64,000 nucleotides of DNA from assembly GCF_044324875.1 (NCBI RefSeq), contig NZ_CP172185.1. One strand, given 5' to 3'. Within the stretch, counting starts at the first letter, position 1. Each line of letters opens with the position of its first letter. A program made the position numbers. Shown here piece by piece: positions 22,663-25,600 of this stretch. This DNA is from Escherichia coli (GTDB taxonomy: Bacteria; Pseudomonadota; Gammaproteobacteria; Enterobacterales; Enterobacteriaceae).

Positions 22663-25600
22663 TCAGCCCTTTCGCATACAGTGTGACGGTATGCTGATGG
22701 CGGGGACTGAGTTCACCGCTGGTGAGCATGAGCTCCAGCTGTTTCATCAGCAGCGGAAAAGCCTGGTCCAGGTGATACGCATCTGCGTCGCTGAACCGGC
22801 TTCTGATACCGGCCCGGTCTGCAAGGTAATGCAGGCGGTTACCCTCCTGCACCAGACGGGCACCAAAACAGGGCGTCACGGTGCAGGGCAGTCCCCACCA
22901 GGGGAGATTGTTATTGTCGTCGGGATGCGTTGTCCCGGTGAGTGTGTCTGACATGATAAATCCTCTGTGAAAGTGGGTTGAGGTGATGAGGTCAGCTGAA
23001 ATGATGTCCGGCTGCGGTGAAGGTGTATCCGTTGATGAGAAGCGCCTCATCCACGGCGTCGTCTGAGGTCAGCCAGTCGTACTCGTTTTCCAGTTGACTG
23101 TATAACCAGAAGGCCAGGTCCCGCAGGGCGTCACAGACAACGGTTTCTGCATCGGCTGTCATTGCCTGTCCGGTCGGACTGTTCCGGGTAACAGTGATAT
23201 CCATGCTGTACGGATGGCAGTAGTGTCCCCGGTGACTGATTTCAGCCTGTAACTGCCGGAAGTTACGTTTCTGCACCGCCTGCAGGGCATCCGCGATACG
23301 ATGAAGTTCATGGTCCTGCGGGGCATATTCCCGGATTTTCCTGGCTGTTGCCGGCTGCCAGTGCCAGCGTCCTTCAAAACAGGCTCCGTCCCCCTGGCTG
23401 CAGAATCCGCTGAACCAGATACACGGCTCTTCCATAAACCTGCCGCTGCTGAGCCGGATAACTCGCTGGCGGAGGACAATCCCGACAATCTCACAGACCG
23501 CCCTGAAGTCTTCATACACGTTTTCATACCAGCTGCTGTCAGCATGATGCTGACGGTACCAGTCACGGGCTTTTTCCCGTGCTGTGGCGGAAAGTTCATC
23601 CGGCGTATACACGGTGGTGGTGATAATTCTGCTCATCCGCATCTCCACTGACTCAGTTCAGGGTGACGCTCATCAGCCGGACATACGGGCCAAAACTGTC
23701 CTTGCGGCGTTCGGCAAACACGGCCAGTACGCCGGGGATATCCTGTACTTCACGACCGGTATACGCCTCAGTGCCGCCGTGCCAGCGGTACTTACCGGTG
23801 CAGAACGGAAAAAGACGGGATGACGGATACTGACGGTGAACGCGCATGGCTTCACCACGGGTGACGATTTTCATAGTGTGATACCTCATGAGGATGAGAG
23901 AGAGTAAAGGGCCGGATGACGATGACAGATATGTGGTTTGCTGTGATTTGTCGCAGAATTAAAGCAGGCCGTGTTCGGCAAAGGAGAACACCCGGCTGCC
24001 ACCGACTATCAGATGGTCCGGTACCCGGATATCCACCAGGGCCAGTGCCTGTACCAGCCGTTCCGTGATAAGCCGGTCAGCCTTACCGGGTGTGACTTCA
24101 CCGGACGGATGATTGTGCGCCAGCACCACGGCAGCGGCATTGTGGTACAGGGCGCGTTTAACCACCTCCCGGGGATGGACTTCCGTGCGGTTGATGGTGC
24201 CGGTGAAGAGGGTTTCACCGGCAATCAGCTGATTCTGGTTGTTCAGGTACAGCACCCGGAACTCTTCCCGCTCCAGTCCTGCCATGTGCAGAATCAGCCA
24301 TTCCCGTGCCGCATGCGTGGAGGTGAAGGCCACACCGGGTTCATGAAGATGGCGGTCCAGGGTTTTCAGGGCACGCTGAATGAGACTGCGCTCGCCGGGC
24401 GTCATCGCGCCGGGCAGAAAGGAAATCTGTTGCATAACCTCACCCCTCAGTCGATGATGCGAATAATGGCGCTGCATTCCGGATGCTGCAGGGCGTAATC
24501 CCGCAGCCGGTAATAATGGACCGTCATGGCATAATGCTCCGTACTGCAGGCGTGATGACTGTAGGCCATCAGACAGGCGGCAATGCCGGCGGCTTCCGGG
24601 CTCATTTCCGCGCGGTTACCGTTCATGGCGTTAAACAGCACCCATTTTTCGTCATCATCGTCACCCGGTTCGGGAGCCATAAATGCGCCGCCGTTGTTCA
24701 GGGTGTACATATTCCAGATACCCCCACTGTAGTCTTCACACAGACGGTCCATCCAGCCGAAGACACGGGGCTCCAGGGTCACCCACTGCGGAATGAGGCC
24801 AAAATGCTGCGGCCAGAAGCTGATGCGCTGTTCGTCAGGCACCGTGGTGGCAACCAGCTGAGGTGTATTATTCCCGGATGCAGTGGCTGCGGAAACAGAG
24901 TCATGCGAAACCGTTTTCATAAGTGAAATCCTTAAGTGAATAAGTGAATAAGTGAATAAGTGAATAAGTGAATAGATAAGAGAGAAAAGGCTGCGCCTCT
25001 CAGGCAGAAGGCATCAGCGCATACTCACCAGCAGCGTTTCCGCCATCACCCACAATGCACGATTGAGCTTAATGTCGGTGTCGATACTGTGAATGGCCCG
25101 GGTGTGGATACGTTTTCCTTTTGCGCTGCGTCCCTGAAGACCGCCTTTGAGCATATTCTCCTGGATGGTCTGATAAGCACTCCACAGGTCCCTGCCGTAA
25201 TCCTCCCGGCGTCGTGGTGTCAGAATGTCGGCGGTGGTGACGGGCTGATGTTCGTCACCATAACGGTAAGTCAGTGCCGCCTGTGCCAGCGCCTGACGAG
25301 CCGGTGGTGGTAAAATCAGCGACTGCATGGCATCACGCTTCTCCTCAATCCGGTCAAACACGCCCACAACCTCGTAAGCCCCTTCGATGACCCTGTCCAC
25401 CACGTTTCCCCGGTGCGGGACACGCACCTCTCCGAGAGACTGACCACAGACACATCCGTTCTGACACACGAACCGGAAGTAACCCGGCAGCATCTGGTAG
25501 CTGGAGGTACCGTCATGGGAGTTCAGCAGGATGATTTCAGGAACGTGCTGTCCGTTTATCTCCCCGTCACGGCGCAGACGCAGCATGTGCTTTGTGTATC

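Follow-up and report, generated by a model that had tools for sequence, protein, structure and literature searches.

The leading regions of conjugative elements have been described as "anti-defence islands" that hold anti-restriction, single-stranded DNA-binding protein (SSB), methyltransferase and toxin-antitoxin (TA) genes (PMC11541004), and RadC, ArdC and CbtA recur as domains in conflict proteins of such elements (PMC5512222). Here we describe a gene on the minus strand of a 64,000-nucleotide stretch of an Escherichia coli genome (contig NZ_CP172185.1, assembly GCF_044324875.1; referred to as the window), which lies between a DUF987 gene and the antitoxin gene cbeA of a CP4-like module. 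It encodes a protein of 214 amino acids (aa) that belongs to the family DUF8835. Members of this family are found on islands, conjugative plasmids and phages, and two loops are almost invariant among them. The gene has been lost from the CP4-44 island of E. coli K-12, and its product may act early in the establishment of mobile elements.

Several described systems come close to this protein in sequence or in location. The names DUF8835, phrog_5162 and the legacy "antitoxin of toxin-antitoxin stability system" all stand for one family, to which the window protein belongs without any difference and for which no structure has been solved. The type IV antitoxin CbeA/YeeU (PF06154) is encoded by the adjacent gene, is occasionally fused to the DUF8835-family protein and in Salmonella is linked to it by a 4-nucleotide (nt) gene overlap (translational coupling); however, CbeA is unrelated in sequence and half the size, and most family members occur without CbeA/CbtA. 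The KlcA/ArdB proteins (PF03230) are also small and soluble and are encoded in the same island module (24447-24920) as well as in conjugative establishment regions, but the DUF8835-family protein has no PF03230 match and its model is similar to no solved structure. ArdA and Ocr are likewise acidic proteins of mobile elements and phages and are expressed early; the median net charge of the DUF8835 family is -17. In contrast to these two, to which it has no Pfam or structural match, the window member is mildly acidic, and conservation lies in loops and not in a pattern of carboxylates. Helix-grip or TULIP-like alpha+beta wraps (Aha1 N-domain, BPI/SPLUNC, StART-like) are named for comparison.

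A real gene of a catalogued family

The gene and the parts of it that are referred to below are located as follows:

22992-23636, minus strand: coding sequence of the 214-aa protein of the DUF8835 / phrog_5162 family, with ATG start (open reading frame and translation)
23643-23646, minus strand: Shine-Dalgarno-like GGAG, 6 nt 5' of the ATG, in the context ...GTGGAGATGCGGATG
23370-23414, minus strand: codons of FSGFCSQGDGACFEG, residues 75-89, the signature beta-hairpin (read from the sequence)
23214-23222, minus strand: codons of Y139-C140-H141, the Y-x-H loop (alignment and model)

An alternative GTG start at 23648 would yield 218 aa, four residues more than the ATG version. The identical 645-nt coding sequence (100%) is found in E. 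coli AR_0085, where RefSeq lists it under WP_099441936.1 with the product name "antitoxin of toxin-antitoxin stability system". Because there are thousands of homologues and four E. coli alleles give a ratio of non-synonymous to synonymous substitution (dN/dS) of about 0.25, this open reading frame (ORF) is a real, intact gene and no chance ORF. A second copy of it was not found on searching the window. An earlier first-pass annotation of the window had reported the gene with its coordinates, neighbors and motif, and all of these hold, as seen from the ORF itself, the Pfam matches to the flanking genes and the motif at residues 75-89. The same annotation could not place the protein in a family. 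This is now superseded: RefSeq gives the DUF8835 name to E. coli alleles that are 86-90% identical (about 90% at the nucleotide level; e.g. WP_000086752.1), and the protein matches phrog_5162, a PHROG family of unknown function, over its full length (E=1.2e-36; residues 2-212 against profile positions 2-197 of 201). No match was obtained in Pfam or NCBIfam (E<=0.1) or in PADLOC (E<=1), the copy of Pfam that was scanned being taken not to include DUF8835. Literature searches under DUF8835, the legacy name or the gene neighborhood returned nothing on this protein. Since RefSeq contains the identical protein and a DUF number has been assigned to the family, the novelty of the gene itself is low: it is already known as a RefSeq sequence and as a member of a catalogued family of unknown function, and is not a new discovery.

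The family signature is complete in the window protein. It consists of the SGFxSQGDGAxFEG hairpin, the Y-x-H loop and a C-terminal N-x-Y-x-F-x(3)-G, elements that are invariant or more than 90% conserved in both family alignments. The motif had been called distinctive, and indeed FSGFCSQGDGACFEG holds the most conserved element of the whole family. Homologues amount to 2,807 clusters at 90% identity and to 3,451 representatives at 50% identity. With few exceptions their length is 200-225 aa, and no additional domain could be recognised in the longer ones (P0139, P0253 and others). Of four members whose genomic context was looked up singly, two diverse metagenomic ones were uninformative, with a single contig on record for each, one of them shorter than 1 kb.

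We assembled the best 80 matches among species-representative genomes, almost all of which are from Alphaproteobacteria. These proteins are 58-64% identical to the E. coli protein. At the same 80 loci and with the same threshold, homologues of E. coli RadC and KlcA were found in only 13 and 9 cases, respectively. Because identity between alpha- and gammaproteobacterial members is thus about 60% where the two neighboring families are mostly not recovered, the comparison points to an unusually constrained protein. The family is carried by 107 plasmids, mainly of Rhodobacterales and Sphingomonadales, 41 of which are typed as conjugative, and by 62 phage records, all of which we take to be of lytic types. 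Phage carriers include Caulobacter Dolichocephalovirinae, RaK2/K64-1-like and other jumbo phages of about 350 kb, Acinetobacter Saclayvirus, Pseudomonas Lanavirus and the Vequintavirinae phage Av-05.

Predicted structure and invariant loops

An AlphaFold2 (AF2) model built from an alignment of 110 sequences reached a predicted local distance difference test score (pLDDT) of 96.7 and a predicted template modelling score (pTM) of 0.89. In this model the protein is predicted to be a single-domain alpha+beta protein with two N-terminal helices, an antiparallel sheet of eight main strands, a long helix (residues 162-188) and a short C-terminal hairpin. Foldseek matched no solved structure in the PDB (best E=0.39), and sequence and profile searches against the PDB gave noise only (E>=0.7); no ArdA model or ArdA-like fold was matched either. 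Among predicted viral structures the matches were uncharacterised phage proteins only. Structure prediction had been proposed as a check on the identity of the protein: it yielded a confident model, but no solved relative in the PDB.

Across island, plasmid and phage members, which share 26-61% identity, the residues L15, A23, G52, G77, F78, G82, D83, G84, A85, Y139, H141, Y179, L182 and G210 are invariant, and S80, Q81, R172, D173 and E197 are nearly so. The core positions of the hairpin are at least 93% conserved in the 110 sequences, and the Y139/H141 loop connects the model strands 128-134 and 144-150. Invariant residues are concentrated in two hairpin loops, namely the hairpin of glycine, aromatic and polar residues and the Y-x-H loop. 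The protein had also been described as acidic. This applies weakly to the window copy, whose charge is modest (30 D+E, 21 K+R, net -9, isoelectric point (pI) 5.5), and better to the family, in which the 110 aligned members have a median pI of 4.7 and a median net charge of -17 with a range from -31 to +8.

Distribution in E. coli and loss from K-12

Using megablast, the gene was found in 1,967 of 5,426 complete E. coli genomes (about 36%), near full length in 1,941 of them, and at 2,834 places in total. RefSeq names these copies by the legacy antitoxin name, as "hypothetical protein" or as "DUF8835 domain-containing"; in NZ_CP135646.1, NZ_CP104846.1 and NZ_CM181339.1 the last name is misspelled as "DUF8835 domain-containing pootine". 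For comparison, DUF987 genes occur at 13,972 places in 4,887 genomes, so that roughly one in five CP4-like modules of E. coli carries the DUF8835-family gene. In a more sensitive search 1,942 genomes had a near-full copy, and counting any match, mostly short remnants, raised the number to 3,705. Among four intact E. coli alleles dN/dS is about 0.25, and the gene is therefore under purifying selection; values for the neighboring genes range from 0.09 to 0.20 (cbeA 0.20, antirestriction gene 0.18). The allele of E. coli strain C9 (locus L096, 2501-3145) contains internal stop codons, and the adjoining DUF5983 gene is also a pseudogene; this locus is an example of continuing module decay.

The slot between the DUF987 gene and cbeA had been described as empty in the K-12 CP4 islands. 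This is borne out at the gene level in MG1655: no gene separates the DUF987 gene from the CbeA-family gene in CP4-44, CP4-57 or CP4-6, where the two lie 73, 37 and 18 nt apart, respectively. The 73-nt spacer between yeeT and cbeA of CP4-44 (NC_000913.3; locus L002, 7040-7112) aligns with the ribosome-binding site region, the ATG and the first 8 codons of the window gene, the retained stretch being ATGAGCAGAATTATCGCCACTACC, which encodes MSRIIATT. Homology to the window resumes 10 nt ahead of cbeA, and about 620 bp are missing in between. The spacer contains a stub ORF of 16 codons (MSRIIATTGPFLADFL). Strain DFS.1 has the same chromosomal site (…cbtA, yeeW, yoeF, tmaR, yeeA) and carries an intact gene there, flanked by yeeT and cbeA. 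Given the CP4-44 scar and the intact gene of DFS.1 at the same site, the gene is ancestral to the module and was lost from K-12 CP4-44 by a deletion of about 620 bp, and was not gained in the window strain. In the CP4-57 and CP4-6 spacers no scar is visible, these being too diverged (about 71% identity). To call the protein "extra", as the first-pass annotation did, is thus misleading in view of its presence in about 36% of complete E. coli genomes, the CP4-44 scar and the intact copy in DFS.1. The survey of presence and absence that had been suggested confirms the absence from the three K-12 islands, but otherwise finds the gene to be widespread.

Genomic neighborhoods on islands, plasmids and phages

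In the window the gene is part of the following arrangement:

25014-25832, minus strand: DUF932 gene (ORF and RefSeq annotation of the identical island)
24447-24920, minus strand: antirestriction gene of KlcA/ArdB type (ORF and RefSeq annotation of the identical island)
23959-24477, minus strand: RadC-like JAB gene (ORF and RefSeq annotation of the identical island)
23653-23889, minus strand: DUF987 gene (yeeT-like), the upstream neighbor (PF06174, E=7.7e-37)
22577-22954, minus strand: antitoxin gene of the cbeA/yeeU family, the downstream neighbor (PF06154, E=3.2e-54)
22222-22530, minus strand: cbtA toxin gene, truncated (partial PF06755 match, profile positions 1-83 of 112)

The stop codon of the DUF987 gene is located 16 nt ahead of the ATG, and cbeA starts 37 nt past the stop of the DUF8835-family gene. 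The DUF932, antirestriction and RadC-like genes (23959-25832) form a co-directional run upstream of it. The gene order of AR_0085 is the same: GTPase, DUF932, antirestriction, RadC, DUF987, the DUF8835-family gene, YeeU-family antitoxin, CbtA, DUF5983, DUF957 and DUF4942. A scan of 22200-27200 for the sigma-70 consensus gave no promoter-like site.

In the Enterobacteriaceae the gene is always adjacent to cbeA, with cbtA downstream of it. E. coli and Citrobacter have the order DUF987, DUF8835-family gene, cbeA, cbtA. In Salmonella it is DUF987, cbeA, cbeA, DUF8835-family gene, cbtA, and the start of the gene overlaps the end of cbeA by 4 nt; examples are L099 4630-5645 (Logan SRR6165534) and L049 7332-8945 (S. 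enterica subsp. diarizonae). In-frame read-through fusions to CbeA with a length of 342-343 aa make up at least 15 sequence clusters (P0007, P0011-P0030; P0024 with 343 aa). Those of E. coli run through a short spacer (…FTEAGLRAG-LPEDFIV-SDK…). Such CbeA fusions are tolerated in nature.

For the mostly alphaproteobacterial set, the ORFs of the 80 loci were clustered to find recurrent neighbors. These are a ParB-like protein of about 700 aa, ArdC (ArdcN and zincin MPTase-PolyVal domains), DUF2958, one or two RadC genes, DUF6878 and a YAcAr/SLOG protein. A Strawberry-notch helicase is encoded in 56 of the 80 loci, usually by the next ORF downstream, and a Toprim/DUF7146 protein, also a common downstream neighbor, in 46. 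In alphaproteobacterial conjugative elements the family gene is part of an accessory module that includes genes for the ParB-like protein, ArdC, RadC, DUF6878, the Strawberry-notch helicase and Toprim. In 68 of 74 loci the end of a gene for a conserved protein of about 137 aa without Pfam match (MADYFTHFSC…GGGAHV…) abuts or overlaps the start of the DUF8835-family gene, usually by overlapping it; the 137-aa protein is also encoded at L005 7589-8008 and L006 4823-5233. By this arrangement the two may constitute a two-gene unit. By tblastn, neither the window nor any of the enterobacterial and phage loci tested contained a homologue of the 137-aa protein. It was considered as a remote homologue of CbeA or DUF987 and rejected with hhalign probabilities of at most 0.4%.

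On one conjugative plasmid the family gene follows genes for SSB, DUF932, RadC and DUF6878, and on a conjugative plasmid of Haematobacter a MbcA/RES toxin-antitoxin pair is located after it. The order DUF932, RadC, small proteins, DUF8835-family gene and TA pair is common to the Haematobacter plasmid and the E. coli islands. Given this shared order, the CP4-like module resembles a pared-down form of an old accessory module that conjugative elements carry, a reading in line with the two publications cited at the outset. In the first 50 kb of plasmid pOT1-7 the module is present and no relaxase was found. Among phages, the Caulobacter, Klebsiella Muenster and fENko-Kae01 phages carry the gene inside their terminal repeats, a few kb from the genome end, where it stands among arrays of small unannotated genes of early type; in other phages it is located within similar arrays of small genes. 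Over the neighborhoods examined, the gene clusters with anti-restriction, SSB, methyltransferase and TA genes, which is the composition of leading regions. The family is confined to mobile elements and phages, and by these neighbors its genes are located in the regions that hold establishment and counter-defence functions.

Names in circulation

In the tests run, no support was found for the labels "antitoxin", "YeeU-like antitoxin" and "RNA polymerase binding protein". The legacy name "toxin-antitoxin stability system" refers to the Phd/YefM/StbD-type antitoxins of the COG nomenclature. These are proteins of about 80-90 aa and have the inherited product name alone in common with the 214-aa DUF8835-family protein. 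An assignment to the Phd/YefM/StbD type was rejected: there is no match to such a family in Pfam or NCBIfam at E<=0.1, and no cognate toxin is consistently adjacent, 56 of the 80 loci having the Strawberry-notch helicase and the phage copies small hypothetical genes. None of the literature that uses the full legacy name concerns this protein. The label "YeeU-like antitoxin" of phage entries traces back to a BLAST match to an E. coli entry named "antitoxin of the YeeV-YeeU system", a name borne by GenBank fragments of the DUF8835-family protein. "RNA polymerase binding protein" is used for one Acinetobacter phage, alone among otherwise hypothetical homologues. A resemblance of the family to CbeA or DUF987 was likewise discarded (hhalign probabilities of at most 0.4%).

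Possible role of the protein

Taking placement and conservation together, we tentatively favor a role as an early-acting establishment or counter-defence factor that acts on a conserved host factor via the two invariant loops, either as a binder or as an enzyme; this may well be so, although we would stop short of calling it probable. The protein would be made soon after the DNA of the element enters a new cell. There it would promote establishment of the element by counteracting a conserved host factor or turning it to use; this factor could be a defence or a DNA-processing function. The SGFxSQGDGAxFEG hairpin and the Y-x-H loop would together provide the acting surface, whether the protein is a specific binder or an enzyme, and it would act neither as a DNA mimic nor as an antitoxin. 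The first-pass annotation had considered an "anti-restriction-type" protein. The genomic context in E. coli, alphaproteobacterial and phage neighborhoods makes this plausible, and context is what speaks for it.

A further-reaching proposal, which we consider possible but rather doubtful, is that the family represents an uncharacterised class of early effectors of conjugative elements, islands and lytic or jumbo phages, with an unmatched fold and an anti-defence or host-takeover activity of a new kind. The identity of about 60% between alpha- and gammaproteobacterial members would then be due to a conserved host molecule that the protein binds, or on which it acts as an enzyme, via the SQGDG / Y-x-H site. 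This target could be, for example, a defence component of wide occurrence, a nucleotide of immune signalling or a core protein of DNA metabolism.

Several points weigh against an early-acting establishment factor. No homologue is annotated with a function, there is no PADLOC, Pfam or NCBIfam match, and no experiment or paper supports any function. Guilt by association is weak, as the same neighborhoods hold genes for primase-like Toprim proteins, helicases and ParB. A position in the "leading region", next to the origin of transfer (oriT), is putative. The two conserved loops are assumed to form one pocket. The island can be maintained without the gene, since about 80% of the DUF987 modules of E. 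coli lack a complete copy and pseudogenes occur among the copies. Finally, high conservation across classes would be unusual for a protein in an arms race with fast-evolving defences.

Other explanations draw on the same observations. The commonest downstream neighbors in the alphaproteobacterial set, helicase and Toprim/DUF7146, would fit a housekeeping factor of the element itself, which takes part in DNA processing, replication priming or recombination after transfer together with the helicase, Toprim, ParB or RadC. The alpha/gamma identity would suit a conserved biochemical task, and the polar invariant residues D83, Y139 and H141, together with Q81, could form an active site. However, E. 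coli islands with the gene have no such helicase or primase beside it, most of the phage loci examined place it among small early genes and not in replication modules, and there is no similarity to any known fold of nucleic-acid enzymes, so that we regard such a factor as unlikely. In the Enterobacteriaceae the constant position next to cbeA and upstream of cbtA, the 4-nt overlap in Salmonella and the natural CbeA fusions suggest instead a third component of the CbtA/CbeA module, such as a co-antitoxin, chaperone or regulator, and the MbcA/RES pair on the Haematobacter plasmid can be added to this; if true, it would partly justify the "antitoxin" label. The three CbtA/CbeA-family pairs of K-12 are established, working toxin-antitoxin pairs, yet they do without the gene, and only about 20% of the E. 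coli DUF987 modules contain a full copy. Among the 80 mostly alphaproteobacterial loci, CbeA/CbtA was near the gene in only one, the single Salmonella locus, and it turned up in none of the annotated phage loci. The family has an hhalign probability of 0.4% against the CbeA alignment and no Pfam match. Since an AF2 model of a natural fusion gave a pTM of 0.61 and a disordered linker, no confident packing of the two domains is predicted, although this test is weak, with a shallow CbeA alignment and no predicted aligned error (PAE). A third module component therefore appears quite improbable to us.

The remaining two explanations we consider still less probable, and both very unlikely. According to one of them, raised by the first-pass annotation, the protein is a DNA-mimic anti-restriction protein that titrates type I restriction enzymes like ArdA or Ocr. 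The acidity of the family, with net charges down to -31, agrees with this, as does the location one to three genes from the antirestriction gene of KlcA/ArdB type and, in alphaproteobacteria, near ArdC. But the net charge of the window copy is modest, the family includes basic members, conservation is centred on the hairpin and Y-x-H loops and not on an acidic surface, and neither an ArdA or KlcA/ArdB Pfam match nor a match to ArdA or any other solved structure was obtained; positive evidence for the idea was thus not found. According to the other, the gene is a decaying passenger in E. coli, a relic of an ancestral conjugative element in degenerate islands that no longer has a current function. 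Frequent loss speaks for this (the K-12 scar, the partial remnants, the allele with internal stops), and so does the decay of the window module, where insertion sequence (IS) elements are located inside cbtA and between DUF957 and DUF4942. On the other hand, the dN/dS of intact alleles is close to that of cbeA and the antirestriction gene, a length of about 214 aa is kept in thousands of sequences, and the ribosome-binding site is intact. The early establishment or counter-defence factor thus remains the reading that we favor, with the reservations given above.

State of the surrounding island

In the window, cbeA is intact, but the toxin gene that goes with it is disrupted: an IS21-type element with two ORFs (window 20394-22530) cuts into cbtA after about 83 of 112 profile positions. 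The identical island of AR_0085 carries an intact cbtA. The ORFs of the IS21-type element are:

21173-22195: 340-aa ORF of IS21 type, with rve integrase core and helix-turn-helix (HTH) domains (Pfam scan)
20394-21176: second ORF of IS21 type, 260 aa, IstB-like (judged from the translation)

What appears to be the C-terminal rest of cbtA is located at about 20200-20355, just before DUF5983 (judged by eye). Insertion sequences heavily colonise the island of the window. An element of IS3-family type at 18161-19434, with overlapping ORFs of 136 and 301 aa, the second with HTH_21 and rve domains, splits the DUF957 gene (19497-19742) from the DUF4942 gene (17198-18142) of the same module. A second IS21-family element, judged by the pattern of ORF lengths, has possible copies at 705-3123, 29233-31651, 36586-37584 and 62892-63890; its ORFs encode 548 aa (rve and Mu-transposase C-terminal domain) and 332 aa (IstB), with the domains scanned in the copy at 705-3123. 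Beside the GTPase gene two convergent ORFs of 321 aa (plus strand) and 315 aa (minus strand) without Pfam match are located at 26995-28904, and their counterparts in AR_0085 are "hypothetical" in RefSeq. Between the GTPase gene and DUF932 there is a GC-rich hairpin of 9 bp followed by a T-run (25885-25906, minus strand). It could terminate transcription of the GTPase gene, or else form a structured element immediately ahead of the run from DUF932 to cbtA.

Relevance

DUF8835 is a large, strongly conserved family, and no solved structure is related to its confidently predicted fold. Being abundant, conserved, unmatched in fold and placed as described, the family is a reasonable and cheap candidate for anti-defence screens or establishment assays. 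The islands of K-12 that serve as reference are deletion derivatives, and studies of the CbtA/CbeA module in K-12 miss a component that is present in about one third of E. coli genomes; the deletion scar is a caution against taking the K-12 CP4 islands as the reference. Should the protein indeed prove to be a counter-defence or host-takeover factor, thousands of genes in islands of pathogens, plasmids of alphaproteobacteria and jumbo phages would receive an annotation.

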